A stretch of DNA of 64,000 nt from Acidobacteriota bacterium (GTDB lineage: Bacteria; Acidobacteriota; Thermoanaerobaculia; Multivoradales; JAHEKO01). This document shows, one piece after another, positions 30,007 through 49,420 of this stretch. The stretch lies in the NCBI GenBank assembly GCA_029263375.1, contig JAJCXP010000366.1, positions 2,402 through 66,401 of the forward strand, read 5' to 3'. The position numbers were made by a program, and so were the translations under genes. The first letter of the stretch is position 1; every line of letters begins with the position of its first letter. The notes below the pieces were generated by a model. That model made no database searches. It saw only the letters and a list, made by a program, of their open reading frames with translations, and had not been told where the DNA came from.

Positions 30007-30035
30007 ACGTCCATCCACCTGAAAGGAGGTACCCC

Positions 30036-34207: not shown

Positions 34208-37200
34208 TCAGGAATCTGGACCACCCACTGCCGTCTTCGTCGCGCCACCATGCTCCGTCACGCGAGGGCGGCACTTCACTTTGATGGCGCCGTTGCTGAA
34301 AGCCTCATCTGTGGATTGGCTGGACCAGAGGTAGGCCTCGCCCGGCCGGAGGTGGGCCATCTTGTCGGGCGTGAGGCCGCGGAGGGCGGCGTTGGCTTTT
34401 TGGATGTGCTTCAGCCAGGCAGGCGAGTTGAACTTGTGCAGGATTATCTGGCTCGAGAGCTCGATGAGGGAGACAGGCACCGAGGGCGGATCCTGGCTGG
34501 CGACCATGATGCTCGTCCCCTTGTGGCGCATTTCGCGAACCACTTCGACGAGGCCGGCCACCAGGTCCGGGCTCTCGATGTACTTGTGGGCTTCGTCGAA
34601 GACCACCAGCTTGTTGAAGGCCTTCCCGTCGTGCCTCGCATCGGCGAAGAGCTGAAGGAGCACAACGAAGAGGCCCAGCGCCTCGTCCTTCTCGATGAAC
34701 TCGTCACGCAAGTCGACGATGATGAGCCGCCCCGGCCGGATGATCTCGGCAAGGCGGACGCTGTCATCGATGTACTCGGCGGCAAGGTCGAGGCGTAGGC
34801 GTGCCATGTCCTTGAGGTGGTCCGGCAGGGGCGAGCCTTCGATTCCCTGGCGTAGGCTGGCCAATGTGAGGTCGTGGCGGAGCGACTTCATCACGCGATT
34901 CAACAGGCGGATGTAGGTCGCCTGGTTGCCTACAGCGCCCATCAGGAATCGCCAGTGGCTCGTCTGGAGCTCGGCGGCGGCGAACTTCAGGGGTTGGACC
35001 TCGATCCCCTCATACTCGCGGCGGCGTTGGTCGAGCTTGTCCGCAGGCACTAGCAGTACAACGTCTGAGAGGGCCTTGGGTTTAGCGCCGAATCTCTCCC
35101 GCAGTAGCGCGATCTGGCCCTCATTCGAGTTGGGGGCCACCATCGACGTGAACTCGGGCTCGTAGTCCATCGTCGGGCTGTAGTGGAAGATGACCGTCGC
35201 CAGTGGCTGTGGCAGCTCGTTGATGTGCGGGATCGGCAGCGACGCCATCTCGGCGATTGTGCCCAGGGTGTAGGACTTACCGCCTCCCTGGACGCCGAAG
35301 AGGCTGATCGTATGCGTCTCGTTGAGATCGAGGGCGACCTTCCGCGCGGCGAGCTCGCCAAGGATCCCGTACTGGGGGGAGGCGCCCGTAGCGCCAATGA
35401 GCACGTCGTAGGGTGGCCAGTCCCGCACACCCGGAGCCTTGGGCTCTCCAGACGTGGGCGGATCTGGCTCGGCGATCGGGGACGTCGGAACCGAGTCTTC
35501 GTTCGTGAGCTTGTCCAACTCCGGTGTCACGGACTGTGGCTCGGTGGCCGAGGCGACGGTTGGCGGCGCCACAGGTCCGCTTCCACCATCGCGGCCGTCC
35601 GCGGGGTCGCTGTCCTCTGCCTCGGAAGCTGTAGAGGCGAGAGACTCCTCACCCAGGGTGTGGCGTGCTCTCAAATCTTCCCAAGAGACGGAGCGGTCGC
35701 GAGACTGCGCCAAGAAGGCCGCCTCGTCCAGCGCGGGCACAGAAGGCGCCCGCTCTCGGCGCGCCGAGAGTTGGGTGGTGCTGGACGTGCCCGGCCTCAT
35801 GAGGACGACATCCTCCGCGGCGTCGACCGCCACCTCGTCGAGGCTTGGCTCCGGCAACGCAGCATCGATGAGTTGCTGAATGAGGTCAGCGCCGATGCGG
35901 TGGTGCTCGATGCCCGACTCATGCTCGGGCGGCTCCGTCCCCGGCTTGTCGAAGTCGAAGATGATAGCCGCCCGTGTGAAGTCGAGCCGATAGCCGCTCT
36001 CGAGGCTCCTGAGGAAGAACCTGGCCTCATCGGCAGCCGCCTCGCTCATCACGCCGTAGCGAATGGCCCGATCCAAGTAGAACTCGAGCAGGGTGACCAG
36101 TTCGCGCATCTTGACTAGACGGTCCGGGCGATCCACCGGGCCGCGCCGCGGGTCAAAGTGGTAGCCGAGCATCTCCTCGCTCTGGGCGATCTGTTCCGCG
36201 ATGGAGTCCTTGAGCTGGTTGAACGCTCCGATATCGCCAACCTGCTTGTAGCACTTCACCTCGACCAGCCGGCAGGTGATGATCCGCGCCTGCGCGTCGA
36301 GGTCGAACAGCGCGAGGTCGGTGCGCTTGAAGCTGACCTCGTCGCCGAGTTCGTCCGCGCTCTTCTTGAGTGCCCGGTACAGATCGAGGTGGGCGTCGAG
36401 AGGTACTACGATCTGATTCTGAAACACTCCCTGGTGCTCGAGGTACATGCGCGAGAGCGCCAGCCCGAGGGCCTCGGCCCGCTGGCTGGGCGAAGAGATG
36501 AGCTTGAGGGCGAGGCGTCCCGATAGGGACCGCAACTGGTCGAGGATGGCCACCGCGTGACGCCCGTCGGCCTTCAAGCAGTACTCCTCGAGGACTGGCT
36601 TGAGCATCGCTTCGAGTTCGGCGACAGACCGCGAGGTGATGACCAGGCGATGGCCGAGCCCGCCCGCAAGGTCTGGCGAATGGTCGATCAGGTACTCGGG
36701 TCGACCGAAGCGCCCGCCGTGGTCGAAGAACTCGATGCCCATGTTGCGGTCGATGGTCAGGACCCAGTCACTGACCTCGTGGACCTTGTGGAGGATGGCC
36801 CGGTCCTCGGCGTCGAGCACTAGCTTCGTCACGGGCCGCAGGCCTAGCCCCGTCTCGCCGGTCGCGACCGTCGCCGCCGCACTGGAGATGAGCGCCGGCA
36901 CCGTGGAGAGCAGGTCGGTCAGCTCCTCGGCTCCGGCGAGCGGCAAGGCCAAGCCGTGCCTCGGCTGCCGTGCCCAAGCGACCGTCGTCTCGTCCTCCCG
37001 GTAGTCCACCAGGAAGTCCTGCACCAGGCCGTGGATGGGTGCCGTCGCCTCCTCGGCCGAGGCGCGCGCGGCCCCTACCTCCTCTGCTGGAAACAGGTCG
37101 AAAAGCAGCGACAGGTGCGCAGCGTGCTCCTCGGGGGCCCGGCGGAAGTCCGTCGTCGGCCGAATCGCTAACGCGAGCTTCGGCCTTAGATGACTCTCTG

Positions 37201-39793
37201 TGGGCGTGGAGAAAGCATCGGCTTCCTTGGCGGCCACTCCCGCCGTAGATGAAAGAAGATCTGCGAGCGACTCGCCGACACCGGGAGCGTCTGGGTCAGG
37301 AACGAAGAGCCGGACGTCGTAACGGATGTTGGCGAAGGCTGGTTGCTTCTGGAGCTGCAGCAGCATGGCAGCCAGCACGTTCGCCCGGCCCGCGTTGAAG
37401 GCGTTGACCACTAGGGTCCGCACGTAGGGGTGCTGAACGAGGTAGCGCAGCGCGCGCGACGCTAGGTACGTGCCGTCAATGGCGGCGCCTCCGATGGCCG
37501 GCTCGGGTAGGCCCAGCGCAGCGCACACGTCTCCCACGAGACTGCGCGGGTCTTCCTCGCGCGGCGGTGCGTACAGAGTCCAGAAGGGGTGGAGGTTGTC
37601 GATAGCCGTCAGTAGCCGACCCGCCGTCGTGGGGAGGACCGGGGGGAAACTCACCGGTGCCAGGAGGCACAGAAGTGCCTCCCGTGTTGGCACCGCGAAT
37701 TCCCTCGGAGCTGTCTTGGCTTCTAGGAGCCAGAGCTCGGACAACTCTGCCCAGGCTGCCATCCAAAGCGCCCGGAGCGGGTGCGTCGGCGCTACGAGAG
37801 CCGCCTCTCTCCGGCGGCCTCGGTGATCGCGAATCGCAAGGGTGATGCTGTCTATGGAGAGCATGTGCCGCAGATCGGCCAGTGCCAGCTTCGTCCCGCT
37901 GCCGCCCCTGGACTCAGCTCGATGGAGAAGCTCCTTAATGACTCGGGTATAGGCGTCCGCGTACTCGGTGATGAGCGGGCGAAGTGCCCGCAGGTCAGCC
38001 CCTTGGGTGACGAGTTCCTTGGTCCCTGATTGAACCGCTTCGAAGTACAGTTCTCTGGCAACGAGGAAGCGGCTCACAGCCTCTCCTTCGGGCCAACGTA
38101 CCGACTCACCGGTGGCTTGGCCTGCAGAGCCCATCGAAATCGGAATCCGCCAGCCAATGGGGCCGTCCGCCGCCCTGAGAATCCTCTGCTCCAGGATCTT
38201 GAGTGGGCGGCTCACCGGCACATTAATCGTGCCCCCGTGCCCGAGCCTGACCTCGAGCACGTCGGCTGTGGCAGCTCGAGCCCGCGACCTGCCCTCTGCC
38301 CATTCGACGGACTTGACCACGATGGCGTCGGGATCCCGGCCGTCGATGAGCGCGGTGAAGCGGGCTCGCGTGCGAGCGTGGACCAGACTGGCCTCGCGCT
38401 GCACGGCCCGCTGAGGCGGATCGACGTCCACCTCGCCATCTGGGAGTACATAAAAGAGGTCGCTCTCGTTCGGGCGGGGGGTAATCTCGTCCTCGTCGAC
38501 GGCCCAGGGGAGCGGGTTGCCTGCAGCGTCCACCAGCGGAATGAGATCGCCCTCTTCGGTCTGGGCGAGCACACGCACGAAGTGCCAGCCTTCCTCCCAG
38601 TCAACGCGCCCCAGCTTGGAGAAGCTCACGTTGGCGGCGGTGCGACTGGACTTCCAGACGGACTTGCTCCTAACGAGGCCCACCGGGCCGTGCTCCTTGG
38701 AGATCACCTGCGCGATGAGCTTGCCCAGGCCCTGGACCTTGGCCGGGTGCGGATCAACGCGGAAAGTGACGTTGAACTTGGCGAGGCTCCGCTTCCCGAG
38801 CGGGAGCACCCGCTGACCGATGAGCCGCCCGAAGCGCTTGTCCTCCTCGTCGCCTTGGACAACCGGCAGGTTGGTTTCGACATCGCCGATGAAGATGCTG
38901 TCGGGCTCTTCGCCGCCGTCGTCGAACTCCCAGCGATTAAAGGCCAGCCCCCACAGGCTTCGGTCCAGCACGATAGACCGCGTCCAGCTGCGCGGGTCCT
39001 CAACGCCGGCCTTGGCAAGGAAGTTCCCGAGCTGGATGCGGAACCCGCGGTTTGCCAGGCCCAGGTCCAGCACGCGTCCTCTCTCGGACTTGGCCGACCA
39101 TGTGAGTTTCGTGACGCAATCCTGGTTGCGCGTCACCCGAGCAGGCGCTTTTTCAGGGTACGCGAGCAGCTCGAAATCTGGCACGAGAGACAGCTCGTAG
39201 AGCGCACCTCCGAGCGCTTCCGCGTCGTACCCGTTGACCTTTGCGGTCAGCAGGAACCGCACCACGGCGACAGGATCGGCGAAGGGCCATGGCGGCACGG
39301 CATCGGTTAGGCGTCGCAGCGCCTCGCTGACTGCTCCACGGAGACCAGGCTCTAGCTCTCCCAGGAGCTGGGCACGCAGCTCGCCATACACGTCGCTGAT
39401 CGCGACATCCTCGAATGTGGCAACACCGAACGAATCCTCGGCTGCCGTCCGGATCTCTGGCGGGATGAACGCGAGCAGGGGTGGCCGCTGCGCTCCGTCC
39501 GGCAGTGGGTTGCGCAGCTCGACGAGCTTGGTGGCACTGACGGTGAGCTCCGGGGGCGTTGAAGGCCTTCGTCCGTCTCCCAGGATGACAACTTCGGCGG
39601 CTGGCACCTCAGCGCGGAGACGGCCGCACAACCGCACCATCACATCCACGTCCAGGTCGGCGATGCGCATGCAATGGCCGGCCGTCCGAGAACGAAGGCG
39701 CTCTGCCAGCTGCGGGAGCAGCATACGCTCGAGCTCAGCGGACACGTCGTAGGGCTGGAGCTCACGTAACCCCACTTGTCCAGCGCGGCTCAC
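34208..39793 (-). CDS. 1861-aa protein with C-terminal HerA/FtsK-like (DUF87-type) P-loop ATPase. Last gene of the RM-like/kinase operon
   Basis: C-terminal Walker A ISLFGVQGGGKSYTLG. Walker B KLVVFDEAHKYI. N-terminal ~1450 aa without recognised motifs. Start overlaps the upstream stop (ATGA). Confidence 0.7.
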   Translation of the reverse strand: MSRAGQVGLRELQPYDVSAELERMLLPQLAERLRSRTAGHCMRIADLDVDVMVRLCGRLRAEVPAAEVVILGDGRRPSTPPELTVSATKLVELRNPLPDGAQRPPLLAFIPPEIRTAAEDSFGVATFEDVAISDVYGELRAQLLGELEPGLRGAVSEALRRLTDAVPPWPFADPVAVVRFLLTAKVNGYDAEALGGALYELSLVPDFELLAYPEKAPARVTRNQDCVTKLTWSAKSERGRVLDLGLANRGFRIQLGNFLAKAGVEDPRSWTRSIVLDRSLWGLAFNRWEFDDGGEEPDSIFIGDVETNLPVVQGDEEDKRFGRLIGQRVLPLGKRSLAKFNVTFRVDPHPAKVQGLGKLIAQVISKEHGPVGLVRSKSVWKSSRTAANVSFSKLGRVDWEEGWHFVRVLAQTEEGDLIPLVDAAGNPLPWAVDEDEITPRPNESDLFYVLPDGEVDVDPPQRAVQREASLVHARTRARFTALIDGRDPDAIVVKSVEWAEGRSRARAATADVLEVRLGHGGTINVPVSRPLKILEQRILRAADGPIGWRIPISMGSAGQATGESVRWPEGEAVSRFLVARELYFEAVQSGTKELVTQGADLRALRPLITEYADAYTRVIKELLHRAESRGGSGTKLALADLRHMLSIDSITLAIRDHRGRRREAALVAPTHPLRALWMAAWAELSELWLLEAKTAPREFAVPTREALLCLLAPVSFPPVLPTTAGRLLTAIDNLHPFWTLYAPPREEDPRSLVGDVCAALGLPEPAIGGAAIDGTYLASRALRYLVQHPYVRTLVVNAFNAGRANVLAAMLLQLQKQPAFANIRYDVRLFVPDPDAPGVGESLADLLSSTAGVAAKEADAFSTPTESHLRPKLALAIRPTTDFRRAPEEHAAHLSLLFDLFPAEEVGAARASAEEATAPIHGLVQDFLVDYREDETTVAWARQPRHGLALPLAGAEELTDLLSTVPALISSAAATVATGETGLGLRPVTKLVLDAEDRAILHKVHEVSDWVLTIDRNMGIEFFDHGGRFGRPEYLIDHSPDLAGGLGHRLVITSRSVAELEAMLKPVLEEYCLKADGRHAVAILDQLRSLSGRLALKLISSPSQRAEALGLALSRMYLEHQGVFQNQIVVPLDAHLDLYRALKKSADELGDEVSFKRTDLALFDLDAQARIITCRLVEVKCYKQVGDIGAFNQLKDSIAEQIAQSEEMLGYHFDPRRGPVDRPDRLVKMRELVTLLEFYLDRAIRYGVMSEAAADEARFFLRSLESGYRLDFTRAAIIFDFDKPGTEPPEHESGIEHHRIGADLIQQLIDAALPEPSLDEVAVDAAEDVVLMRPGTSSTTQLSARRERAPSVPALDEAAFLAQSRDRSVSWEDLRARHTLGEESLASTASEAEDSDPADGRDGGSGPVAPPTVASATEPQSVTPELDKLTNEDSVPTSPIAEPDPPTSGEPKAPGVRDWPPYDVLIGATGASPQYGILGELAARKVALDLNETHTISLFGVQGGGKSYTLGTIAEMASLPIPHINELPQPLATVIFHYSPTMDYEPEFTSMVAPNSNEGQIALLRERFGAKPKALSDVVLLVPADKLDQRRREYEGIEVQPLKFAAAELQTSHWRFLMGAVGNQATYIRLLNRVMKSLRHDLTLASLRQGIEGSPLPDHLKDMARLRLDLAAEYIDDSVRLAEIIRPGRLIIVDLRDEFIEKDEALGLFVVLLQLFADARHDGKAFNKLVVFDEAHKYIESPDLVAGLVEVVREMRHKGTSIMVASQDPPSVPVSLIELSSQIILHKFNSPAWLKHIQKANAALRGLTPDKMAHLRPGEAYLWSSQSTDEAFSNGAIKVKCRPRVTEHGGATKTAVGGPDS

Positions 39794-41481
39794 GGCTGAC
39801 CTCCTTCACTCGAGGTGTCGGTAGGCGAGCCGTTACGACCGATCCGGTAACGGGGAACAACCGTCTGGGTGACGTAGGCGTCGGATAGGTCCTGGTAAAA
39901 GCCGACGTCCCGAAGACGCGCCATGAAGGCCTCCAGATTGGACCGTAGCGCGGCGCGATCCGCGATCGACGGAGCGTCGAAGCCGTCTCCATGGGGCAGC
40001 CGATCGATATGCAGGCCGTAGCGCTCGCGCAGGAAAGTCAACAGCGCGTCGATGCGAAGCTCACCGGTGTAGTAGCCCAGCGCTCCTCCCGGTCGCAGAA
40101 CGGCGATCTGAAGCAGCACCTCTAGGAGGCGGCTGTCGAGTACGAACCGGCGCGGTGCTTTCTTGACGCGGGGTTGAGCGATGACGGCACCGGCGCGGTT
40201 CTTCAGCAGAAGCGAGTCGATGCATTCGGTAATGTACTGGCGGTGGAACCGGCCACGCAGCGCGACGAGCATCTCGATGTAGGTCTCGAACTCGTCTAGA
40301 CCCATCTCGGTAACAGCCTTCAGCTCGGGGTCCAGGTCGGCGTCAGGCGCACCGCTGGAGTCTTGGATGAGCCCGTAAACCCGCTGGCCGAAGAACTTCT
40401 CGCGCTCGGCTTTGTGCATCGGCTCGAGGAGCTGGTGGACCTCGGCCACAGTGAAAGTCCCGCTAGGCGGGCTGGTCAGCTTGCCTCGACGCACGAGGTC
40501 GGTGGCGAACTCGTCGAGCTTCCGCGTCGCGAAATAGGCCTTTACGAAGGAGGGAACGCGGCGGTAGTGCATGTCAGCGCTCCGCTCGGCGAGCACCGCC
40601 ATGGTGGTGCCAGGCTGGCTCACGACGTCCAGCAGCAGCCCTACGCGATGCGGGCAGTCACCATGGGGATCGTCCGCGCTTTTCGAGTTCATGGGACAGG
40701 CGGCGCAGGTCGGGTCCTCACCCTTCCGCCGGACTAGCGCCGGCAGCAGCTTGAACAAGCGGAGGTGGTAGAGAGCCAAGTGAAAAGAGAACAGCACCTT
40801 CAGGTAATCGACCATCACCGATCGCGGCACGAAGCGCTGGTAGAAGAGGAGCCGCATCACGTCCTCGGCTAGCAGGTCCGCAGCCCCGACGCAGAGCGGC
40901 GGGTGGCTCTCGCGCCCCGCGCGGGTGTCCGCCGCGTCGTCCACCTGGTCGAGCAAGCGCAGCAGCGCCTGCGTCTCCACGTCGAGAATCGCCCCCTGGT
41001 CGGCACGCCCGGTGACTTTGTCGTGACCCTGGAAGAAAAAGTGGTCGAGGTGCTCGAGCGCCTTCTGCCCAGCCCCGCCGCGGGCGCCGGAGATCAGGTC
41101 ATAGAGGTGCTGCGCGGCGCCGTAGTCACGAGAGTGCTTTGGGTTGCGGAAGCGATAAGTGAATCCGTGCAACGGTCGTGGCGCGGCGATAGCCTGGTTG
41201 GCCTTGCCCCGATTGACCACGTCCATCAAATGAGTCTCGATCCAACGGAACAAGATGTCACGATGGTCGGCAAACCCGGTGAACCACTCGGGGTGCTCGA
41301 GGAACTCCTCCACGAAGGCCTCAGTCGACAGCTCAGCCTTGCGTCGTAGCCGACTCGGGAAGCCGTTGTGGGCCAAGCGCGCAAAAAAGGCCGTCAAGAC
41401 CCGGTCCATCTCGAGCTGCTTGAAGTCGAGGTGACTGATCTTGGGGAGACGAAACTCCCGGTCGCGCTTCGACAAAGCCAT
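39790..41481 (-). CDS. 563-aa conserved hypothetical protein (operon member)
   Basis: Translationally coupled on both sides. Cys cluster CAACPMNSKSADDPHGDCPH could bind metal. No family recognised. Confidence 0.5.
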   Translation of the reverse strand: MALSKRDREFRLPKISHLDFKQLEMDRVLTAFFARLAHNGFPSRLRRKAELSTEAFVEEFLEHPEWFTGFADHRDILFRWIETHLMDVVNRGKANQAIAAPRPLHGFTYRFRNPKHSRDYGAAQHLYDLISGARGGAGQKALEHLDHFFFQGHDKVTGRADQGAILDVETQALLRLLDQVDDAADTRAGRESHPPLCVGAADLLAEDVMRLLFYQRFVPRSVMVDYLKVLFSFHLALYHLRLFKLLPALVRRKGEDPTCAACPMNSKSADDPHGDCPHRVGLLLDVVSQPGTTMAVLAERSADMHYRRVPSFVKAYFATRKLDEFATDLVRRGKLTSPPSGTFTVAEVHQLLEPMHKAEREKFFGQRVYGLIQDSSGAPDADLDPELKAVTEMGLDEFETYIEMLVALRGRFHRQYITECIDSLLLKNRAGAVIAQPRVKKAPRRFVLDSRLLEVLLQIAVLRPGGALGYYTGELRIDALLTFLRERYGLHIDRLPHGDGFDAPSIADRAALRSNLEAFMARLRDVGFYQDLSDAYVTQTVVPRYRIGRNGSPTDTSSEGGQP

Positions 41482-44400
41482 CAGACCACGTCCGCCGGGA
41501 GCGCCACCGGCGCAGTATCGACAGGTCCGAGAGCCTTCATCTCCAGGCGGCCGTCGCCGTGGCGCTCGATACGGTAGAAATCGTGGCCGGTCGTCGTCAA
41601 TAGGACCTCCTGGTACGGCTCGGAGCCGAGCAGATTCTTGAAGACAGCGAGGCTCAGGTAATGCCCCTGCTCCTCCTCAATGCTCGGTCGGTAGCCCTCA
41701 CCCACCCGCTCCAGCATCTCAAAGACGTCGAGGTTGATCTGGATTTCTGCCTCGTTCCCGGCCTCACCCCGGTAGCGCAAGACCAGGCCGATAGGCATGT
41801 GCTCGATGAAGAGCGCGCTGCCGGCAGAGTCGCTGATAGCCAACGAGAATCGCTCGGGTGGGAACACGCGGTAGCTGCGCACCGTGCCGCGTTCTACCTC
41901 CCGCACACGCAGCGCAAGCCTTCCGTCGAGGCGGCCGGGGTCGCTCAACCCCTCTCCGCGGTTAATAGCCCGGAGGATCCGCGGAAGCACCTCATGCAAT
42001 GGTGCCTCGCCCCGCACCAGGCCCAACATCTGCTCGGCGGAGCGGTAGGGGAGCATCTGGCGCCAGCCGGAGTCCCGCCGCTCGAAGAAGGCGCGGCGCC
42101 GGACCATTTCCACATACCCCTGGTGCGCGCCAAGGCGGTGCTCGGTGGGTCGGCCTGAATAGTCACGGGGGAGGTCGTCGAACAGACGCTGGATCACCTC
42201 GCGGTCGTAGTCGGCGCGGCGGGCAAAGCGGAACAGACTTCGGTCGACGACGGGCGACACGAAGTCTATGGCCCGGTCGAACCGCGGATCGCTGACGTGG
42301 CCAACATCGACCTCCTGGAGTAACGCGAGCAACCGATCGGCGTTGGCCGTATCGCCGCCCATCCAGGAGTTGAAGTAAAAGCCCTGGACCACGGCCGCCC
42401 GGTCACCTGCCTTGTAGAGATCGTGGATGGCCTGGCAGTCGCGTGTTCCGGCCAGCATGTATGCGACGGCAGAGCGTAGATCCCTCATCGTGATGTGGAG
42501 TCGACCACGCAGATGCGTGATCGCGTAGAGGGTCTTGAGGCGCTCGATGACCTTGTGTCCCGCGGTCTCGTCCTGGAAGGTCCGCGCATTGTGGAGTACG
42601 TAGCAGCGCTCCTTCAGGTCACAGCTGTTGCAGGGCTCCCAAAAGGCCTCGTGCGTCAGCCGGCGAATGAGCCTCGCGAAGATCGACTCGTCGCCGCCCT
42701 TGGGATCCCCTTCGAAGAGCTCCAGACCACCGGTGGCGGTCACAACGCTGCGGAGGTTGAGGTTGACGACCGCCACGCGGTGCTCTGGCGTGCCGCTGAC
42801 CAACCCCACGCGAACTACTCGTTCGAGGAGCGGGAAGCGCTCGCGCTCCGTGGTGAGGAAGTCGACGAGGCGGCCTTCGTTGATGGCGATGAGGCGGACC
42901 TCGTCGTCTGGCCAGGCGTCCGCGTCCGCGCCGGCGAACGGCGCAAAGAAGTCCCCGAGAACCTCGTCGCTCTTCTGGTCGCCCTCGTCCTGGCTGCCGT
43001 CGTAGTTGGTCAAGTAGGTCCGGTCTTGAAGTCGAAACCGGCGGCCGTTGACTAGCGGCGGGTCAAAGGCCGCCTGGTTGCCATGAGCCCGCTGCTCCAG
43101 CCGCTGCAGGAATGCGGTCTTGCCGTCGCCGGCGTTGCCCGTGATCAACACTAGCCGGAACTCTCCGCGGAGAACCGCGGGCTCCAGCTGCCGGTCGAGC
43201 GCGGTCTCGACGTAGGTTCTCTCACCAAGCGCGTCCAGTCCGCGTGTGCCCACGTTGCTCTGTTGGCTCTGGCTATAGAGCGTCAACAGGCGGGCGACAA
43301 AGGGGTTGGTATTGGGGGGCGTCGAGCCACCGTCGTCGAGCCCGACGGTGGCCCAGGTCTCGGTGGTTTCGGATCTGGCCCGCCGGGCTTGCTGGACTCC
43401 GGCGAGCGATGCCTGCAACTCAGCGATGGACGCGAAGCGGTCGGCGCGCTTCGGCGCGATGGCCTTCACCGCGACTTCGGCGAGCTCGGGTGCCAAATCC
43501 GAGAGCCCGGAGATTGAGCGGGGGTCCAAGGGTGGCTCACCCGGCGGCGGCGTCGCGGCCAGCCAAGGGTATGCCCCCGTGATCGCTTCGTAGAGTGTTA
43601 CCCCGAGAGCGTAAAGGTCGCGATCGGCGAGGTCCGAAGGGCGCGGAACGGCGTTGAGATCGATGTCAGGCGGCAGGTAGCGCCGGGAACCGCCGCCGCG
43701 TCCATTGTCAGCGGCGGCGAGCACGGACACGTTGAAGTCGATGATCCTCACGCCACGGTCGGTCCAGATCAGGTTCCGCGGCTTGATGTCGCAGTGGTAT
43801 ACGCCGTGCCTGTGCAGGTGGGCGAGCCCCTCGGCTACCTGGCGGGCTAGCTCGAGCGCGTCCTCGGGGGCGAAGAGACCGCCCTCGACCATCTCGCCGA
43901 CATCCAGCCCCTCGATGTACTCGAAGACGATGAATGGCGGCCCGCCGCGCGGCAGCAGATCGGCGTCGATGACCTTCACGACGTTCGGGTGCTCGGGCAC
44001 ACGGAGCAACGTCCGGTACTCCTTCTTGAGGCGGTCGAGTGTCGAGTGGCGGTCGCGCAGGATGAGCTTCATCGCGCGCGAGACATCGCCGAGGGTATCG
44101 ATGACCTTGTAGACCACTCCGAATGAGCCGGGGCGGCCGAGGCGGCGATCCACCAGGTACTTGTGCGTCAGATGCGTACCCGGCGCGAGCTGGCTGTAGT
44201 CGACCTCGGGCCGAGGCTCGGTCTCTGGCTCGGGCGCTGTCGGCTCGTTCTCCGCGCTTGCCTCCGCAGCCAGCAGCGTCGCCAGCTCGGTAGCGGCCTT
44301 TCCCGCGGTCGGACGCCGGTCCGGGTCGAAGGCGCAAAGCCGCTGCAGCCAGTTGTCGAAAGCGCTGGCCTGACCGCTTTCCGATGCGTTTCCGTCCCCG

Positions 44401-45707
44401 CCCCGTGGGGTCGCCAGCTCCGGCCGATGCTCCGAGGGCTTCACCGAGAACACGCCGCCCTGATCAAAGACCTCGGTGGGACTGGCGAAAGGCTTATCGC
44501 CGGTGAAGAGCTCGTAGAGCACGAGCCCGGCGCTGAACACGTCAGAGGCCGCGCTCGCTTTCTGGGGCTCCCGGAATGCCTCGGGAGCCGTGTACAGGGG
44601 CTCCAGCTCGTCGACGATCTCGTGCGCGATGGTGCGGGAGCGATCGGTGCCTGCGCGGGCGAAGTCGAAGCCGATGAGCCGCACGCGCTCGTCAGTGCCG
44701 ATCAGAATCGTGCTCGGTGTCAGGTTGCGATGAACGACGTCGTGCTGATGCGCGTGAGCCAGGGCACCGAGCAGTTCCGACGCCACGCGCAGCTTCTGAT
44801 CAAGAGTGAGCGCAAGGTTTGCCTTGTCGATGTGCACGCGTAATGCCTGGCCGCGGACATCCTCGGTAACCAGAACGAAACGATCCTCGTGCTCGTCTAC
44901 AGGGGCGAAGTCCCGTACCCCCACGATAGCGGGATGCCCGGGCATCTGGTTTAGCGCGTTGTAGGCGTTAGCGATCCGGGCCCGCTGCTGGGCAATCTCA
45001 CCTGGGTCCGTGAGATACGGGTCTGCCTTGTAGACTCGCAGCAGGATGCGCCCCGAGCGCTTGCCGGCGAAGGTATTGAATCCGCGGTATTCCGTATACG
45101 CGTCGGTCCCACCGAGGCGCTCCTCGACCTCCCAGTTGCCGAAGCGCAGCGGCCCGGTGCGAGGCCGTGCCACACCCTGGAGCGCCTTGAGCACCATGCT
45201 GTGCAGGATGCTGATGTTCTTGGAGAAGCGACCGCCGATCCGGGCAGCGTTCTGGAATAGCCCGGGAGCCTTGAGGAGTGTGGTGACGCTCGGCGCGTCT
45301 CGACCGCTGGGATCCTGGAGCACGGCCCCGGGGGACGCGAGCAGCACCACCGCATCGACATAGACTCCTTCGAGGTCGCGACGCCCACGCTGGCTATCAG
45401 TGATGATTCCCTTGAGGCTACGCGCGTGGGCGCGGAGTTTGATGAGCGGCGAAGTGTAGGGCTGCCGTCCGTCCGGGTGCCACTTGGGCCCGTAGACGTC
45501 GATGAGCCCGCGCGTGCCCTTCACGTCGACCAGGTACACCGCGTGCGGGGCGATGACTGCCAGGTCCACCTCGAAGAGCTCTCCGCCGCGCACGATCTCG
45601 AAGTTGTGGACGAGCAAGTAGCCGTCCGGAAGGCGGTCCCGTAGGTGGCGAATGGCCCGGCGCTCGGCCTCGTTGACCGGCTCGCCGATGGGGATCACTC
45701 TTGCCAT
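41481..45707 (-). CDS. NERD-domain plus tandem protein-kinase (pseudokinase then kinase) plus P-loop NTPase protein, 1408 aa
   Basis: N-terminal NERD-like segment (VIPIGEPVNEAERRAIRHL...DLAVIAPHAVYLVDVKG). Kinase 1 has HRNLTPSTIL/GFDFAR/YTAPE, with the catalytic Asp replaced by Asn. Kinase 2 has GRPGSFGVVYKV, AMKLI, YHCDIKPRNL, DFN. Then a P-loop LVLITGNAGDGKTAFL. Confidence 0.75.
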   Translation of the reverse strand: MARVIPIGEPVNEAERRAIRHLRDRLPDGYLLVHNFEIVRGGELFEVDLAVIAPHAVYLVDVKGTRGLIDVYGPKWHPDGRQPYTSPLIKLRAHARSLKGIITDSQRGRRDLEGVYVDAVVLLASPGAVLQDPSGRDAPSVTTLLKAPGLFQNAARIGGRFSKNISILHSMVLKALQGVARPRTGPLRFGNWEVEERLGGTDAYTEYRGFNTFAGKRSGRILLRVYKADPYLTDPGEIAQQRARIANAYNALNQMPGHPAIVGVRDFAPVDEHEDRFVLVTEDVRGQALRVHIDKANLALTLDQKLRVASELLGALAHAHQHDVVHRNLTPSTILIGTDERVRLIGFDFARAGTDRSRTIAHEIVDELEPLYTAPEAFREPQKASAASDVFSAGLVLYELFTGDKPFASPTEVFDQGGVFSVKPSEHRPELATPRGGDGNASESGQASAFDNWLQRLCAFDPDRRPTAGKAATELATLLAAEASAENEPTAPEPETEPRPEVDYSQLAPGTHLTHKYLVDRRLGRPGSFGVVYKVIDTLGDVSRAMKLILRDRHSTLDRLKKEYRTLLRVPEHPNVVKVIDADLLPRGGPPFIVFEYIEGLDVGEMVEGGLFAPEDALELARQVAEGLAHLHRHGVYHCDIKPRNLIWTDRGVRIIDFNVSVLAAADNGRGGGSRRYLPPDIDLNAVPRPSDLADRDLYALGVTLYEAITGAYPWLAATPPPGEPPLDPRSISGLSDLAPELAEVAVKAIAPKRADRFASIAELQASLAGVQQARRARSETTETWATVGLDDGGSTPPNTNPFVARLLTLYSQSQQSNVGTRGLDALGERTYVETALDRQLEPAVLRGEFRLVLITGNAGDGKTAFLQRLEQRAHGNQAAFDPPLVNGRRFRLQDRTYLTNYDGSQDEGDQKSDEVLGDFFAPFAGADADAWPDDEVRLIAINEGRLVDFLTTERERFPLLERVVRVGLVSGTPEHRVAVVNLNLRSVVTATGGLELFEGDPKGGDESIFARLIRRLTHEAFWEPCNSCDLKERCYVLHNARTFQDETAGHKVIERLKTLYAITHLRGRLHITMRDLRSAVAYMLAGTRDCQAIHDLYKAGDRAAVVQGFYFNSWMGGDTANADRLLALLQEVDVGHVSDPRFDRAIDFVSPVVDRSLFRFARRADYDREVIQRLFDDLPRDYSGRPTEHRLGAHQGYVEMVRRRAFFERRDSGWRQMLPYRSAEQMLGLVRGEAPLHEVLPRILRAINRGEGLSDPGRLDGRLALRVREVERGTVRSYRVFPPERFSLAISDSAGSALFIEHMPIGLVLRYRGEAGNEAEIQINLDVFEMLERVGEGYRPSIEEEQGHYLSLAVFKNLLGSEPYQEVLLTTTGHDFYRIERHGDGRLEMKALGPVDTAPVALPADVV

Positions 45708-47110
45708 CAGGCGGCCTCCTCGATAGCGGCCTCGACGAGGGAGACTGCTTCGTCTTCGGCTGCCGTCGCACGAATCCGAGCCTCGAAGGCGTCTTGTACC
45801 CGTTTGTCCACGTTTTCCATGAAATCCTCAGGCGCCCGGACGATGGGGACGCTGGCCAGAAAGGAAGGCCAGAGCGCCGGAACCGACGCCCCGGTCATGG
45901 TCCTCGTGAGCAGCGGGTACCCGATGCTCGGTGCAGCCAAGTACGCGAAGAGATATCCTGCCGGGACTTGGTCTCCCTTCGGGACAATCCGAATCACATG
46001 ATCGGACGTCGCCGCACCATCCAGCGCCGCATCCACGAACTGGGGGCGGCCAATGATGCCACCTAGCTGCCCGGACCTCGCCAGAAGCACCCACCCCGTG
46101 TGGATGATGTACTTGTAGAGGTCCTTTGTCCGCCTCCGGGAGAGATGCTTGTCCGCCTTGCGGTTGAGCCGGAACAGCTCTCCGCTTGTGAAGAACGGGA
46201 TCCCGTACCCCGCATCTACGTAGATGTGCTTGAAAAGCGGGACATCGAAGACGTCGGCTATCAGGCCGAGTTCCCAGAAGCCGCTCGCATGCGTGGTCGC
46301 CCAGCGGTCGAGCATTGTCGCCACGGGGTTATGGAAGAAAGCATCAAAGCGACGGGAAGAACTCAGTGCGCCGACACTGACTCCATGCCCGAACCGATGG
46401 ATGTCTGACTCCCTAGGCGGAGGCGTTGGCGGACAGAGTCGGCGCTCAACCTCAGCGACGACTCCCGCCAGCCTCCTTGCTGCCGCGGTCCGCAGCCTTG
46501 CGGCTTCGCTCACCAGTTCGTGTGCTCGCCTTTCGGTTGTGTCCGCCAGTCGCGGCACCGGAAGGTCGTAGATTCTGGCGGGCGGCAGGAATGGAACAGT
46601 CCCGCCCGTCGTCCCCACAGCTACAATGGCGACTCCAAGACGCGACGCCAGGAATGCGAACAAGTAGCCGGGCCTAATCTTGCTTCGGTCAGGCACGACT
46701 TTCATCACGTTGTCCGACCCGACTTTCCCAGCCATGTCCGGTCGGACGAAGGCTACCCGTCCGACCGTGCCATACGAGGTAATGAGGGTCGTGCCTTCCT
46801 CCAACAACATGAACGGCATCGCCGTGGCTTGGCTTCTCGCGATGAGCGGAGCCGAGCTGATGTCTGCTGCCAACATCTCGGAACCAGAGAGCAGCGCGAC
46901 GCCGTGGTCAGGCGAGTCTGTATACCGCCGCGCGAACCGCGGTCCGTTGAAGATCCCCTCCTTGCCACCCCTAGTAAGGTGCGAGAGGCCTGTAGTCCGA
47001 AGCCGCCTCAGAGTCGCCCGCGCTTCGCGGGCTGCAGAAAGGTACGGGGCCGCAGACAAGCGATGACCTGACTCGAGTAGCCAGTCACTCGGCACAGACT
47101 TGTCCCTCAT
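45707..47110 (-). CDS. type I RM specificity subunit-like protein (HsdS-like, two TRDs), copy 2
   Basis: Conserved N-terminal, central (DLPVPRLADTTERRAHELV) and C-terminal (EDEAVSLVEAAIEEAA) regions, shared with copy 1, flanking two divergent TRDs. Start Met chosen by ATGA coupling at 47110. Confidence 0.6.
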   Translation of the reverse strand: MRDKSVPSDWLLESGHRLSAAPYLSAAREARATLRRLRTTGLSHLTRGGKEGIFNGPRFARRYTDSPDHGVALLSGSEMLAADISSAPLIARSQATAMPFMLLEEGTTLITSYGTVGRVAFVRPDMAGKVGSDNVMKVVPDRSKIRPGYLFAFLASRLGVAIVAVGTTGGTVPFLPPARIYDLPVPRLADTTERRAHELVSEAARLRTAAARRLAGVVAEVERRLCPPTPPPRESDIHRFGHGVSVGALSSSRRFDAFFHNPVATMLDRWATTHASGFWELGLIADVFDVPLFKHIYVDAGYGIPFFTSGELFRLNRKADKHLSRRRTKDLYKYIIHTGWVLLARSGQLGGIIGRPQFVDAALDGAATSDHVIRIVPKGDQVPAGYLFAYLAAPSIGYPLLTRTMTGASVPALWPSFLASVPIVRAPEDFMENVDKRVQDAFEARIRATAAEDEAVSLVEAAIEEAA

Positions 47111-47391
47111 GCCCCGTCCCGCGGGCACCACCGCCGTAGTGTGTCGAATAGCGAGGGACCCCTGCAGGGTGAGGTGGCGCTCAGCGCCTCCCAACCGCCA
47201 GTGCGCTGGGGCGCGGCCCCGAGAGCCGTGAGTGGCACGACTGCATCGACGGATACCCCCAGCCTTTCGCCGAGAGCGGTTTCGGAGTTAAGCATGAGGA
47301 GCTGGTCGCCCGACAGGTGATCCCGTAGGTGGCAAATGGTCCGTCGCTCGGCCTCATTGACCGGCTTGCCGATGGGGATCACCGTCGCCAT
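47107..47391 (-). pseudogene. duplicated 5' fragment of the NERD-kinase gene (first ~70 bp, then divergent)
   Basis: MATVIPIGKPVNEAERR matches kinase N-terminus MARVIPIGEPVNEAERR. The DNA at 47320-47394 nearly duplicates 45640-45710, including the junction TGATGGC. Confidence 0.5.
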
Positions 47392-48791
47392 CAGGCGGCT
47401 TCCTCGATGGCGCTCTCAACGAGGTCGACAGCTTCGTCCTCGAGAGCGACAGCCCTCTGCCTGTCGACGTACGCGCTGACTACTTCTTCGTGCACAGACC
47501 TTTGCATGTGTCGAGACGGGTAGGGCACCGGTATTTGCGCACGGTAAACGTTGTGATGGTCCTGCTGCTTGGTGCCCACTGAGATCGAGCGGAGCATCCG
47601 AAAGGCGCTTTCCGAGCGCATGAACGCGAACAAGGCTCCCCGCGGCATTATCCTCTCGTCGGCGACGATGCGAAGGATGTCCTCCGAGTAGGCGAGGCCT
47701 ACGGCCGACCCCCAAGCGAACTCAGCGCGGCAGTAGAGCTCAGATTCGCCGAGGGTGCCTCGGGCCGCCACAAGCGTAGTTCCAGCATCGACAAGAATGT
47801 CGTCCGCGACCGACGTTCTCGCAATCCACCGTCCACGAGGGCGAAGCCTAAACAGCTGCTTCTGCCCTATGAGCTCGTATGCGTACTCAGGCTCGGCGTC
47901 AATCCGCCTGTATCGACCTCCGCGCTTGAGAGTTCCTGGGACACAGATCTCGCCGAGCGGCTTCCAGGGCCCACTCCGGATGCGATCGCAAAGGCGCCTG
48001 AACCTCGGGTTGAAGTTGAGCGCGCGCAAGGACTCCACTTTTGGAAAGGTCGCCTGGAACCCGACGTCAGGGCCCTCTGACTGCCACTCGCGTGCAGTGA
48101 TGTCCTGGAGGCCAACCGAGGCGAAGAACTGAGCCGTCGTATCGGAAAGCGCACGCTGAGCTCCTGTCAGGGTAGTGCCGGCTTCGACTACGAGCGCATG
48201 CGCTCTCTCCTCCATGGCTGCGTCGAGCCGTGGGACCGGAATATCTGCGAGTTGCTCTGGCTCTACATGCTTGATGTTTCCACCATAGATCTGCTTCCGG
48301 ATCCATGCGTGCCCGAAACGACTGGCGAGAAAGGCATGGACGTAGCCGGGAGGCACTCTTGCCGAATCTGGGCGAACCCGAATGAGGTCGTGCGTTCCAC
48401 AGAGCCGATCAAAGTCTCCGCGAGCCCAGATTGCGCGGCCTAGGTTCATTCCCGAGCAGGTCACCAGGATCATCCCTGGTTGGAGCATGAGGAGGTCCAA
48501 GACGCTGCCCAACCGGAACGACAAGAAGGCCGATGGCCGGACATCCGCCTGAAGCAAAGCATTGCCAGAAACGTAGGGGCGACCATACTCCGGGCCTGCG
48601 GCGTAGATCCTCTTGAAGATCGGCCCCCTAAAGACTCCGCCGGGCGGGCAAAGGTCTCCAAGCGGGGTCGCCTTTCGGCCCAATTCTCGGAGGCGCGCTA
48701 CCGCTTGCTGGTCCTCGGACAGGTGGAAGCCACCCGTGAGCCGAGTCCCTTCGGACATGATGTCCGACGCCGAGACCGGGCCGACCCTCAT
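47391..48791 (-). CDS. type I RM specificity subunit-like protein (HsdS-like, two TRDs), copy 1
   Basis: DIPVPRLDAAMEERAHALV. C-terminus EDEAVDLVESAIEEAA. TRDs unrelated to copy 2. Start at 48791 overlaps the upstream stop (ATGA). Confidence 0.6.
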   Translation of the reverse strand: MRVGPVSASDIMSEGTRLTGGFHLSEDQQAVARLRELGRKATPLGDLCPPGGVFRGPIFKRIYAAGPEYGRPYVSGNALLQADVRPSAFLSFRLGSVLDLLMLQPGMILVTCSGMNLGRAIWARGDFDRLCGTHDLIRVRPDSARVPPGYVHAFLASRFGHAWIRKQIYGGNIKHVEPEQLADIPVPRLDAAMEERAHALVVEAGTTLTGAQRALSDTTAQFFASVGLQDITAREWQSEGPDVGFQATFPKVESLRALNFNPRFRRLCDRIRSGPWKPLGEICVPGTLKRGGRYRRIDAEPEYAYELIGQKQLFRLRPRGRWIARTSVADDILVDAGTTLVAARGTLGESELYCRAEFAWGSAVGLAYSEDILRIVADERIMPRGALFAFMRSESAFRMLRSISVGTKQQDHHNVYRAQIPVPYPSRHMQRSVHEEVVSAYVDRQRAVALEDEAVDLVESAIEEAA

Positions 48792-49420
48792 GCGCCAGCC
48801 TCCTGCGGGAACCAACGCCTTATCGAGCCCGCAAGCAGTTCGAAGGATGGATCTGTACAGCCGTGGACCGATATCGAGTCCGCGATTCGTGTGTAGACTA
48901 CTTTCGTCTTAAGCGACCTCTGTCTAACCAGCGCCTGGATCGTCTCCTTAGGCTCAGTCGGTTTGGGGGCGTCGGCTGGCCAAGCGCCCGTTCCTTCTAG
49001 GTGCCGCCGAAGGGAACCACCTGAGAAGTTCAGGGCTCGCTCCACATTTGGGTTGTCCTGCCAGAGCCAGATCTCGAGCTCCGGGTCGATCACGACCACT
49101 TCGCAGCGATCCCCCCACCCAGTCTGGCTCAACCGGGCGACGATTTCGTCGTGCACCTCATGAGCAGGGAGCTCGCCGCCATACTGTTGGTCGAGCACGA
49201 CAAGGGCGCGTCTGTGTGTGTTGAGGTAGGGCCGCAGTAGCTCGTGGGCGCTTTTGTGCACGCCACCGTCGGTGTGCATCGGATCGTGAAAAATATCTTC
49301 TTGGGGCCAAACGTCGAACCGTTGGCACTGCAGCGTCAGGTCCCACCTCTCCCGCCCAAAGAACGAGCGAAGTACTGCCACCATGGTGCTGTCAGCGCCA
49401 AGGATGACAAGCTCCCTCAT
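48788..49420 (-). CDS. small partner protein of the AAA ATPase (family unassigned; DUF4276/RloB-type partners are candidates)
   Basis: 210 aa. Coupled to the ATPase gene by a 4-nt overlap. N-terminus MRELVILGADST. Confidence 0.45.
   Translation of the reverse strand: MRELVILGADSTMVAVLRSFFGRERWDLTLQCQRFDVWPQEDIFHDPMHTDGGVHKSAHELLRPYLNTHRRALVVLDQQYGGELPAHEVHDEIVARLSQTGWGDRCEVVVIDPELEIWLWQDNPNVERALNFSGGSLRRHLEGTGAWPADAPKPTEPKETIQALVRQRSLKTKVVYTRIADSISVHGCTDPSFELLAGSIRRWFPQEAGA

Follow-up and report, generated by a model that had tools for sequence, protein, structure and literature searches.

A MAD8 protein related to DptH/DndH ends a complete MADS operon in an Acidobacteriota contig and carries a predicted nuclease-like domain

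The Methylation-Associated Defence System (MADS) is a described eight-gene anti-phage system, and the facts on it given here come from the preprint that Maestri et al. posted in 2023, with the accompanying supplement (bioRxiv 10.1101/2023.03.30.534895). In Pseudomonas aeruginosa SMC4386 the deletion of any of mad2-4 or mad6-8 abolishes defence, and mad5 can be deleted only when mad2 or mad3 is deleted as well. MAD6, MAD7 and MAD8 are the mandatory components of the MacSyFinder model by which MADS is detected. Cultures carrying MADS grew like phage-free ones when phage was added at an MOI of 10, and phage escape from the system is epigenetic. A Toprim/OLD relationship and DUF4276 were noted for Mad3/Mad4, MAD7 was matched to DndG (7EXX) by HHpred at 99.5%, and the supplement labels Mad8 as HerA-like only (all bioRxiv 10.1101/2023.03.30.534895). 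No biochemical mechanism for MADS was found in the literature searched. For DndH, the published domain order is an inactive helicase lobe, HTH, beta-sandwiches, TRD, inactive methylase, REase and HerA/FtsK, and the REase domain is described as keeping all of its catalytic residues (PMC10853773). DndFGH is reported to be a 2:2:1 complex that performs translocation-coupled nicking (PMC11662687).

The window analysed here is a stretch of 64,000 nucleotides from an Acidobacteriota contig. All coordinates are positions within it, and those given for the mad genes and for the parts of mad8 are on the minus strand (-). The gene mad8 (34208..39793) encodes a protein of 1861 aa and was recognised from the ORF listing, NCBIfam, PADLOC and full-length relatives. 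It starts with GTG, has an AAGGAGG Shine-Dalgarno sequence 6 nt 5′ of the start, and overlaps the stop codon of mad7 as GTGA (translational coupling). The longest out-of-frame ORF overlapping it is 426 aa, and mad8 is not a chance ORF. NCBIfam NF047742 (MAD8) matched residues 39-246 with 227.9 bits (cut-off 175), and PADLOC mad8 (PDLC04140) matched residues 1479-1856 at 1.1e-44, covering model positions 13-314 of 314; two independent models, one at the N-terminus and one at the C-terminus, agree on the MAD8 family. A database search returned 932 homologues. The best 120 of these 932 each match over the full length with 63-81% identity, and some of them bear the name MAD8; three full-length relatives (P0105, P0059 and P0072) named 'methylation-associated defense system ATP-binding protein MAD8' share 64-65% identity. 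The protein is MAD8 of MADS. Because the family has already been named, and deletion in P. aeruginosa showed that it is required for defence, there is nothing new in the identity of the gene. No Pfam family was found anywhere in MAD8 at E<=0.01, and at E<=10 the only match, in MAD8 and in four distant relatives, was a sub-threshold HerA_C (11 bits). The initial annotation had called the ~1450 residues ahead of the ATPase unannotatable. This holds for Pfam at E<=0.01, but not for NCBIfam, since NF047742 lies within them, nor for the AlphaFold models, in which domains can be discerned.

NCBIfam equivalogs above their cut-offs identified MAD1, 2, 3, 4, 5 (twice), 6, 7 and 8 in one co-directional cluster (39790-52965 plus mad8), and PADLOC models for mad2-mad8 also match the ORFs of the operon. 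The operon is a complete MADS, mad1-mad8, with two copies of mad5. It begins with mad1 (52726..52965; NF047737, 90 bits, cut-off 80), encoding a 79-aa excisionase-type HTH protein. The N6-adenine DNA methyltransferase gene mad2 (NF047738, 1034 bits; Pfam N6_Mtase) spans 50694..52832 as its longest ORF; the NF047738 match begins at residue 56, and the real start is probably Met34 or Met54, downstream of mad1. It is followed by mad3 (49417..50697; NF047739, 527.7 bits; Pfam AAA_21 and AAA_15), which encodes an ABC/OLD-type AAA ATPase, and by mad4 (48788..49420; NF047734, 229 bits, cut-off 160). The two specificity (S) subunits, mad5 copy 1 (47391..48815; NF047740, 464.9 bits) and copy 2 (45707..47194; NF047740, 403.6 bits, cut-off 400), share only 31% identity. 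The 1408-aa MAD6 (41481..45707; NF047741, 792 bits) combines a NERD nuclease domain (Pfam, 1.8e-14), two kinase domains (Pkinase) and an SspF/DndF-like C-terminal half that matched SspF best (1.6e-23) and DndF at 7e-9. MAD7 (39790..41481; NF047733, 678 bits, cut-off 410) is a DptG/DndG/SspG-like protein of 563 aa, to which PADLOC assigned mad7 (4.6e-165) and SspG (2.6e-5); a phmmer search of the PDB gave no match. Both mad6 and mad7 lie directly upstream of mad8, and their stop codons overlap the start that follows. On the downstream side the next ORF (33222-33920) sits on the opposite strand, and mad8 is therefore the terminal gene of the operon, as had been proposed at the outset. Apart from MAD8, the nuclease candidates in the operon are the NERD domain of MAD6 and the OLD-like MAD3/MAD4 pair.

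The last place in the operon, after mad6 and mad7 and with the same partners mad1-mad7, is also that of mad8 in P. aeruginosa SMC4386. Unlike the SMC4386 system, the present operon has two divergent mad5 genes and a high-GC host (~62-66% GC). The gene order MTase-S-kinase-MAD7-MAD8 recurs at the locus of a homologue with 70% identity and at that of one with 30% identity. The genes mad3 and mad4 are missing from otherwise complete homologous loci, and MAD6-7-8 are always there. Also encoded in the window are an integrase, two ATPases like TrwB/TraD and a primase-like protein.

The HerA/FtsK-type P-loop ATPase of MAD8 comprises residues 1461-1861 (34211..35413), as delimited by PADLOC mad8, PDB matches and conservation. 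Direct translation confirmed the Walker A (GVQGGGKS, residues 1500-1507, 35273..35296) and Walker B (VVFDEAHKY, residues 1730-1738, 34580..34606) motifs that the initial annotation had placed in the last ~360 residues of the 1861-aa ORF. K1506 of Walker A, D1733/E1734 of Walker B, R1753/R1756 and Q1767 are kept in 194-202 of 202 sequences. MAD8 has the features that define the HerA/FtsK class, namely Walker A and B, an arginine finger ahead of strand 4 and, at the end of that strand, a sensor glutamine (PMC10853773). At the C-terminus, searches of the PDB gave weak matches (E 4e-4 to 3e-2) to HerA, TdpA and DUF87 proteins, and in the profile search of the PDB the solved C-terminal domain of DndH was unmatched at E<=10. 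In its Walker A, Walker B and sensor regions MAD8 resembles the HerA ATPases of Sir2-HerA, TdpA of TdpAB and DUF87 proteins. However, it is too dissimilar to pass the Pfam DUF87/HerA_C thresholds and, unlike the other defence HerA ATPases, it is fused to a body of 1380 residues via a disordered linker. This Pro/Ser/Glu-rich, variable linker (residues 1381-1460, 35414..35653), seen in the alignment of 120 homologues, has a column conservation of 0.21-0.39 and many gaps. In about 11 of 202 members of the MAD8 family the body is conserved but the HerA module attached to it is strongly divergent.

An ATPase of the HerA/FtsK class, in a window with an integrase, TrwB/TraD-like ATPases and a primase-like gene, could in principle serve the mobile island that contains mad8 as a housekeeping or conjugation translocase (FtsK, TraD or VirB4-like). 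MAD8, however, lacks transmembrane and FtsK-alpha/gamma features and is matched by neither FtsK nor TraD of Pfam, and the link of its family to MTase-S-kinase neighbours extends across unrelated taxa. The initial annotation had named homology to such an ATPase as the finding that would speak against a defence role; when this was looked at, MADS family membership and synteny were found instead. Given the coupling of mad8 to mad7 within a MADS operon and the conserved synteny, the translocase explanation is refuted, and we rate its likelihood as next to nil.

The initial annotation had also likened the protein to the DptH-like giant HerA ATPases of modification-dependent defence, a comparison upheld both by its identity as MAD8 of MADS and by profile homology to 37 DptH sequences. 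Each of the 37 genuine DptH sequences is matched by regional MAD8 HMMs, and the matches are collinear. MAD8 ~980-1065 falls on DptH 920-1018 with up to 20 bits and MAD8 ~794-930 on DptH 745-885 with up to 17 bits, compared with <=4.9 bits for shuffled sequences in both cases, and the ATPase profile scores 48-51 bits against the 37 DptH sequences. These regional searches with shuffled controls took the place of hhalign, whose MAD8-DptH probabilities were low; the low-probability hhalign alignment is likewise collinear (576-1212 on 572-1140). The two proteins are of similar size (~1700-1860 aa) and have the same domain order, with collinear homology over a methyltransferase-like and nuclease-like body and a C-terminal HerA/FtsK ATPase, though the match is at superfamily level only. 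Outside short blocks their sequence similarity is very low, and the HerA module of MAD8 belongs to a different clade. Judged by profile homology, MAD8 is a paralogue of DptH/DndH. Its partners MAD6 and MAD7 are in turn homologous to DndF and DndG, and their SspF and SspG matches extend the comparison to SspFGH. P0177, a member of the MAD8 family, shows weak, partial similarity to SspH, where it aligns to 967-1338. Unlike SspFGH systems, the present operon is without sspABCD genes.

Collinear homology to DptH, together with a weak PADLOC DndH match (5.4e-4 over 130 residues) and the label DptH that JGI gives to many MAD8 homologues, might suggest that MAD8 belongs to a Dnd/Ssp system as a true DptH/DndH (or SspH) dependent on phosphorothioation. 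However, the MAD8 equivalog passes its cut-off whereas the NCBIfam DptH model has no match to MAD8 at E<=0.01, and outside the ATPase the identity between MAD8 and DptH is below BLAST-level detection. The modification genes point the same way. MAD8 sits with m6A-type methylation genes, an N6-adenine methyltransferase and S subunits, whereas the true dpt-dnd locus that was compared has dndBCDE; neither the operon nor the further ORFs of the window that were scanned yielded dndBCDE or ssp genes for phosphorothioation. With the dnd/ssp genes not found and the DptH model unmatched, a true DptH identity is effectively refuted and must be considered extremely improbable.

For the N-terminal body of MAD8, neither sequence nor profile searches turned up a solved relative in the PDB. 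The structures described here are AlphaFold (AF2) models with a pLDDT of 89.9 (model A) and 88.9 (model B), and a pTM of 0.90 for residues 570-1380. The domain reading that follows goes beyond the HerA-like label of the preprint and is a prediction from these models. Residues 14-125 (39419..39754; model A, DSSP) are predicted to form an alpha/beta domain with three parallel strands. Following the published description of DndH it is possibly akin to the second lobe of SF2 helicases; Foldseek matched it weakly to LlaGI and to the helicase cassettes of Brr2. An all-helical domain, either a helical bundle or HTH-like, is modelled at residues 135-283 (38945..39391; model A), and DndH has an HTH/helical-bundle domain at the equivalent position (PMC10853773). 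A first beta-sandwich domain is predicted at residues 300-450 (38444..38896; model A, Foldseek) and a second beta-rich (alpha+beta) domain at residues 470-565 (38099..38386; model A); Foldseek with residues 1-620 returned beta-sandwiches of the FN3 and macroglobulin types, including 2p9r at a probability of 1.0. The alpha/beta, helical and two beta-rich domains are putative binders of DNA or of partner proteins. A helical and hairpin region is modelled at residues 571-780 (37454..38083; model B), and within it P669-x-H671-P672 is kept in 201-202 of 202 sequences. It takes the position of the TRD-like region of DndH, and may be read as a TRD by analogy with DndH only.

Residues ~790-1055 (36629..37426; model B, Foldseek) are predicted to form a Rossmann methyltransferase-like domain, with a Rossmann-like fold of seven strands and an insertion after strand 4; its limits were read from the DSSP string by the author. 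Among the 50 best Foldseek PDB matches to residues 570-1380, almost every one is a class I SAM methyltransferase, at probabilities of 0.97-0.99 and a borderline best E of 1e-3. The canonical FxGxG and (D/N/S)PP(Y/F/W) motifs were not found in the sequence of this domain, which has NAFNAGRA after strand 1 (NAFNxGR) and DLFPAEE after strand 4 (D899-x-F901-P). It is probably not a methyltransferase, because the canonical SAM-binding and catalytic motifs are missing. H788-P789-Y790, N797, G802, F901, H1005, W1010, D1015 and D1024 are kept in 197-202 of 202 relatives (down to ~24% identity), and D833 and D899 are mostly conserved among the same 202. In Aliivibrio DptH, by contrast, NAVNQDE and FFRNNEK are aligned where MAD8 keeps the near-invariant N797/G802/D899/F901. 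Conceivably, the domain is a pocket for a ligand or base, binding SAM or telling a flipped adenine from N6-methyladenine, which would gate the motor and the D...ExK nuclease and make MAD8 a methylation reader. If so, the domain would be no dead relic, although we consider this proposal unlikely.

The following domain, residues ~1057-1310 (35864..36625), is predicted from model B, conservation and hhalign to be PD-(D/E)xK restriction-endonuclease-like, with a helix-strand-strand-strand-helix pattern. Direct translation gives a candidate catalytic motif, D1159-x18-E1178-V-K1180 (DLALFDLDAQARIITCRLVEVK; 36254..36319). In the model D1159 opens strand 1160-1166, E1178/K1180 lie within strand 1171-1182, and helices flank them, in keeping with the alpha-beta-beta-beta-alpha-beta core of the PD-(D/E)xK fold, which has D...(D/E)xK on neighbouring beta-strands. 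D1159, E1178 and K1180 are each kept in 199/202 relatives, and the wider set that includes E1059, D1133, H1135, R1157 and Q1201 in 196-200/202 (down to ~24% identity). The low-probability hhalign alignment places D1159/E1178-V-K1180 on DD...VEVK of DptH. The N-terminal region had been singled out at the start as the place to look for a nuclease fold. The predicted domain with the conserved D...ExK lies there, and there was no significant nuclease match in the Foldseek PDB search of residues 570-1380 or in the viral fold library, which gave no significant match at all. A role of MAD8 as restriction effector is suggested by the invariant D...ExK and by the likeness to DndFGH.

MAD8 might instead be a motor and scaffold only, with the cutting done by the NERD domain of MAD6 or by the OLD-like MAD3/MAD4, and with the D...ExK domain binding DNA or regulating. 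This would accommodate the missing fold match, the Pfam evidence for NERD (1.8e-14), the ABC/OLD type of MAD3 and the Toprim/OLD and DUF4276 link of Mad3/Mad4; moreover, that mad5 can be deleted only upon loss of mad2 or mad3 points to MAD2/MAD3-dependent toxicity (bioRxiv 10.1101/2023.03.30.534895). However, D1133, D1159, E1178 and K1180 are kept in 199-200/202 relatives, a degree of conservation seldom seen in a dead nuclease, and the equivalent domain of DndH is said to keep all catalytic residues (PMC10853773). The constant presence of MAD6-7-8 at homologous loci without mad3/mad4 also argues against it. We regard a MAD8 without a cutting role as possible, albeit doubtful.

Our main reading, to which we give a probability of roughly 0.6, is that mad8 is the end gene of a complete MADS, and a signature gene of that system, and encodes a DptH/DndH paralogue, and that MAD6-7-8 form a DndFGH-like translocating nuclease directed against DNA without the methyl mark. 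In the mechanism that we infer, MAD2 and MAD5 would methylate host DNA at sites set by MAD5. MAD6, with its NERD, kinase and DndF/SspF-like parts, would assemble with the DndG/SspG-like MAD7 and with MAD8 as a DndFGH-like complex, within which the MAD8 ATPase would power movement along DNA and the nuclease-like domain would nick or cut DNA that lacks the mark. The likeness to type I R-M lies in MAD2 and MAD5, which are HsdM-like and HsdS-like. For MAD8 the analogy is functional only, that of an ATP-driven translocating nuclease acting on DNA left unmethylated by the M+S complex. Unlike HsdR, which is an SF2 helicase, MAD8 would have a motor of the HerA/FtsK type, accompanied by DndF-like and DndG-like partners and kinases.

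Rakesh et al. propose that the HerA modules of DndH-like proteins serve in capture (PMC10853773). Accordingly, MAD8 could chiefly sense or intercept invader DNA in replication, transfer or packaging ('HerA/FtsK capture'), with MAD6 kinase signalling or abortive infection as the output. The two kinase domains of MAD6 would suit such an output, and the divergent HerA modules on conserved bodies in ~11/202 family members are also in keeping with it. However, growth at an MOI of 10 and epigenetic phage escape (bioRxiv 10.1101/2023.03.30.534895) are more in line with restriction-like exclusion than with abortive infection, and the nuclease-like motif of MAD8 is invariant. We therefore think it improbable that capture is the chief role of MAD8, and return to the translocating nuclease as the preferred reading.

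That MADS works has been shown by genetics, and the domain map now names residues that can be tested: the D1159/E1178/K1180 nuclease-like site, the intact HerA ATPase and the conserved, non-canonical methyltransferase-like pocket. Together with the map, the correspondence of MAD6/7/8 to DndF/G/H suggests that MADS may unite two modules, one for type I-like methylation and one for DndFGH-like restriction.

The gene mad8 (34208-39793, minus strand) comprises 1861 codons with a GTG start, which shares bases with the mad7 stop codon (GTGA) and lies 6 nt 3′ of a Shine-Dalgarno sequence (AAGGAGG). The longest out-of-frame ORF overlapping it encodes 426 aa, and a database search returned 932 homologues, the best 120 of which are 63-81% identical and all full length (1825-1889 aa). 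It is therefore not one of the spurious reading frames that arise in GC-rich genomes. Moreover, the ORF downstream lies on the opposite strand, making mad8 the last gene of its operon. The initial annotation thus held in describing a terminal 1861-aa ORF with both Walker motifs in its last ~360 residues: Walker A (GVQGGGKS) occupies residues 1500-1507 and Walker B (VVFDEAHKY) residues 1730-1738.

A Pfam scan of MAD8 returned no family. However, two independent models built for defence genes did recognise it. NCBIfam model NF047742 (‘methylation-associated defense system ATP-binding protein MAD8’) matched residues 39-246 with 227.9 bits (cut-off 175), and the PADLOC mad8 model matched residues 1479-1856 (1.1e-44). 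Several close homologues already carry the name MAD8 in NCBI or UniRef (P0105 from Polyangium aurulentum, P0059 from Myxococcus, P0072 from Pseudoxanthomonas), and many are labelled DptH by JGI. The family proved large, a search with residues 1-1184 yielding 914 clusters (50% identity level); full-length relatives as distant as 24-30% identity were still collinear. Every testable feature of MAD8 and of its defence system was found. An assignment to DptH proper was rejected, there being no match to a DptH model, and neither the operon nor the remaining ORFs scanned across the window yielded any dnd or ssp gene. The relationship to DptH (DndH) is at the superfamily level. The earlier description of a giant DptH-like HerA ATPase in a modification-dependent defence operon is borne out. 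The gene was correctly read but is already catalogued, its family being the subject of an experimental paper and covered by curated models in both NCBIfam and PADLOC.

The operon is a complete Methylation-Associated Defence System (MADS) as defined by Maestri et al. (bioRxiv 10.1101/2023.03.30.534895). Upstream of mad8 on the minus strand, each above its NCBIfam equivalog cut-off, are MAD7 (39790-41481, DptG-like), MAD6 (41481-45707, a NERD/kinase protein of 1408 aa), two MAD5 S subunits (copy 2, 45707-47194; copy 1, 47391-48815), MAD4 (48788-49420), MAD3 (49417-50697, an AAA ATPase), MAD2 (50694-52832, an N6-adenine methyltransferase) and MAD1 (52726-52965, a 79-aa HTH protein). Most junctions overlap by 1-4 nt, a sign of translational coupling. 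In the work defining the system, deletions of mad2-4 and mad6-8 abolished defence against phage, and the signature proteins treated as mandatory are MAD6/7/8 (Maestri et al., bioRxiv 10.1101/2023.03.30.534895). The order MTase-S-kinase-MAD7-MAD8, with MAD8 last, was found again in two other loci: one from Micromonospora (L004; MAD8 homologue 70% identical), which lacks mad3/mad4 and adjoins an integrase and a Replic_Relax gene, and a metagenomic one (30% identical).

The two mad5 copies, both above the equivalog cut-off, are separated by 196 nt and share 31% identity, which suggests two different target motifs for methylation and restriction. The longest mad2 ORF (TTG at 52832) overlaps mad1 in a different frame (region 52673-52965, minus strand); since the MAD2 model begins at residue 56, the true start is probably Met34 or Met54. 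The NCBIfam MAD6 model spans only residues 1-636 (NERD and two kinase domains).

Around the operon are genes for a tyrosine integrase, an IS3 transposase remnant, two TrwB/TraD-like coupling ATPases, a DnaG-primase-like protein and an excisionase-domain protein (4522-5760, 15385-16239, 22218-23528, 29721-31052, 53956-55668 and 55680-57395, plus strand). The operon appears to belong to an integrative island that may be conjugative. Two further products appear unrelated to the defence operon: one of 1581 aa (6733-11478, plus strand) that combines FG-GAP repeats with Ig/cadherin-like domains of bacterial type and, downstream of it, a trypsin-like peptidase (12685-14481). Also encoded are a TolB-like beta-propeller protein (57634-59067, minus strand) and a VWA protein (59156-60268, plus strand) that scores 135 bits on the ‘acidobact_VWFA’ model, whose cut-off is 81; these two weakly suggest a Gram-negative host, which may belong to Acidobacteriota or a similar group.

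The ~1450 residues before the ATPase had been called unannotatable, which is true of Pfam but not of NF047742 nor of an AlphaFold domain map. Using alignments of 87 sequences (30-80% identity), two overlapping pieces were predicted, residues 1-620 (pLDDT 89.9) and 570-1380 (pLDDT 88.9, pTM 0.90), and domain limits were read by us from DSSP strings. The predicted order is an alpha/beta domain with three parallel strands (14-125), an all-helical domain (135-283), a beta-sandwich (300-450), a second beta-rich domain (470-565), a helical/hairpin region containing the invariant motif P-x-H-P (571-780), a Rossmann-type domain of seven strands that has an insertion following strand 4 (~790-1055), an alpha/beta domain (~1057-1310), a disordered linker (1381-1460) and a HerA/FtsK-type ATPase (1461-1861). 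Conservation across 120 homologues is high throughout except in the linker, a variable, gappy, Pro/Ser/Glu-rich segment dividing body from ATPase. Between the nuclease-like domain and this linker sits a well-conserved segment of ~40 residues, QLSARRERAPSVPALDEAAFLAQSRDRSVSWEDLRARHTL (residues 1341-1380; window 35654-35773, minus strand), predicted as two short helices within low-confidence surroundings, which may be an interaction motif.

Foldseek against PDB gave only weak matches for residues 1-620 (Brr2 helicase cassettes, LlaGI and FN3/macroglobulin sandwiches; 2p9r probability 1.0). For residues 570-1380 the top 50 were almost all class I SAM methyltransferases (best E 1e-3, probability 0.97-0.99). 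In the methyltransferase-like domain of MAD8 itself the canonical motifs are missing: strand 1 is followed by NAFNAGRA and strand 4 by DLFPAEE. In the domain at ~1057-1310, D1159 opens one strand and E1178-V-K1180 lies in the following strand, in the model the classical PD-(D/E)xK arrangement. D1133, H1135, R1157, D1159, E1178 and K1180 are kept in 199-200 of 202 relatives, and the ATPase residues K1506, D1733, E1734, R1753, R1756 and Q1767 in 194-202 of 202. The putative HerA/FtsK assignment draws on motifs and weak matches to solved HerA proteins, Pfam models being below threshold.

The predicted order is that published for DndH: an inactive SWI2/SNF2 lobe, HTH, a pair of beta-sandwiches, a TRD, an adenine methylase described as inactive and holding a nested TRD after strand 4, an REase described as active and a terminal HerA/FtsK ATPase ‘captured’ from various sources (PMC10853773; Rakesh, Aravind and Krishnan). 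A direct test of homology drew on the genuine dptFGH-dndBCDE genes of an Aliivibrio plasmid and on 120 DptH homologues. Regional MAD8-superfamily HMMs were run against 37 DptH sequences and five shuffles of each. All 37 were matched by MAD8 ~980-1065 (DptH 920-1018; best 20 bits, best shuffle 3.5), MAD8 ~794-930 (DptH 745-885; 17 and 4.9 bits) and the ATPase (1460-1861; 48-51 bits against the C-terminal ATPase, best shuffle 0.9); MAD8 250-575 gave no signal against the 37. With hhalign, MAD8 576-1212 aligned collinearly on DptH 572-1140 at low probability (pairwise E 0.006), setting TD1159...E1178VK1180 on DptH DD...VEVK.

The partners also fit DndF/SspF and DndG/SspG. The C-terminal half of MAD6 (800-1408) matched SspF (1.6e-23) and DndF (7e-9); given the span of its NCBIfam model, MAD6 looks like a NERD-kinase-DndF fusion, and a DndF variant with NERD, pseudokinase and kinase extension has already been described. 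MAD7 matched SspG (PADLOC) and is related to DndG by HHpred (Maestri et al., bioRxiv 10.1101/2023.03.30.534895). An intermediate trio, apparently a MADS-like or DndFGH-like variant, lies on Rhizobium anhuiense plasmid pRA_T24_3 (L001, 450-15841). Its products are NERD-kinase-SspF-like (1330 aa), MAD7-like (607 aa) and DndH-like (1646 aa), the last bearing a HerA module of DndH type; genes for two DNA methyltransferases and a member of the phospholipase D family come next. The third product matched MAD8 891-1470 (BLASTP 7e-17), keeping the SDWV-T-DRN and VEVK motifs.

Approximately 11 of 202 family members (P0177, P0238, P0201, P0250, P0246, P0247 and others) combine a conserved methylase-like/nuclease-like body with a HerA module that diverges strongly and reaches 50-140 bits with the MAD8 ATPase HMM (median 654). 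That of P0177 matches DndH models (1e-48) as well as VirB4 and CedB-type models. These sequences point to motor-domain swapping inside the family, echoing the ‘HerA capture’ pattern.

DndFGH reportedly forms a 2:2:1 complex whose translocation-coupled nicking is repressed on modified DNA (PMC11662687). By homology, MAD6-7-8 would be the restriction module of MADS, acting on DNA without the protective, sequence-specific m6A mark that MAD2 would lay with MAD5. MAD8 would supply the motor, through its HerA/FtsK ATPase, and the nuclease, through D1159/E1178/K1180. The main rival reading is that MAD8 is a motor or scaffold only and another nuclease cuts. Sequence specificity probably resides in MAD2/MAD5 rather than MAD8, as MAD8 is highly conserved across phyla whereas the MAD5 copies diverge. 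In the literature searched there was no published domain map of the MAD8 N-terminal body, and in the supplement to the preprint Mad8 is described only as HerA-like (Maestri et al., bioRxiv 10.1101/2023.03.30.534895). The map is a modest addition that follows what was published for DndH. The least ordinary possibility is a role as SAM sensor or methyl-adenine reader for the methyltransferase-like pocket, which is conserved but non-canonical.
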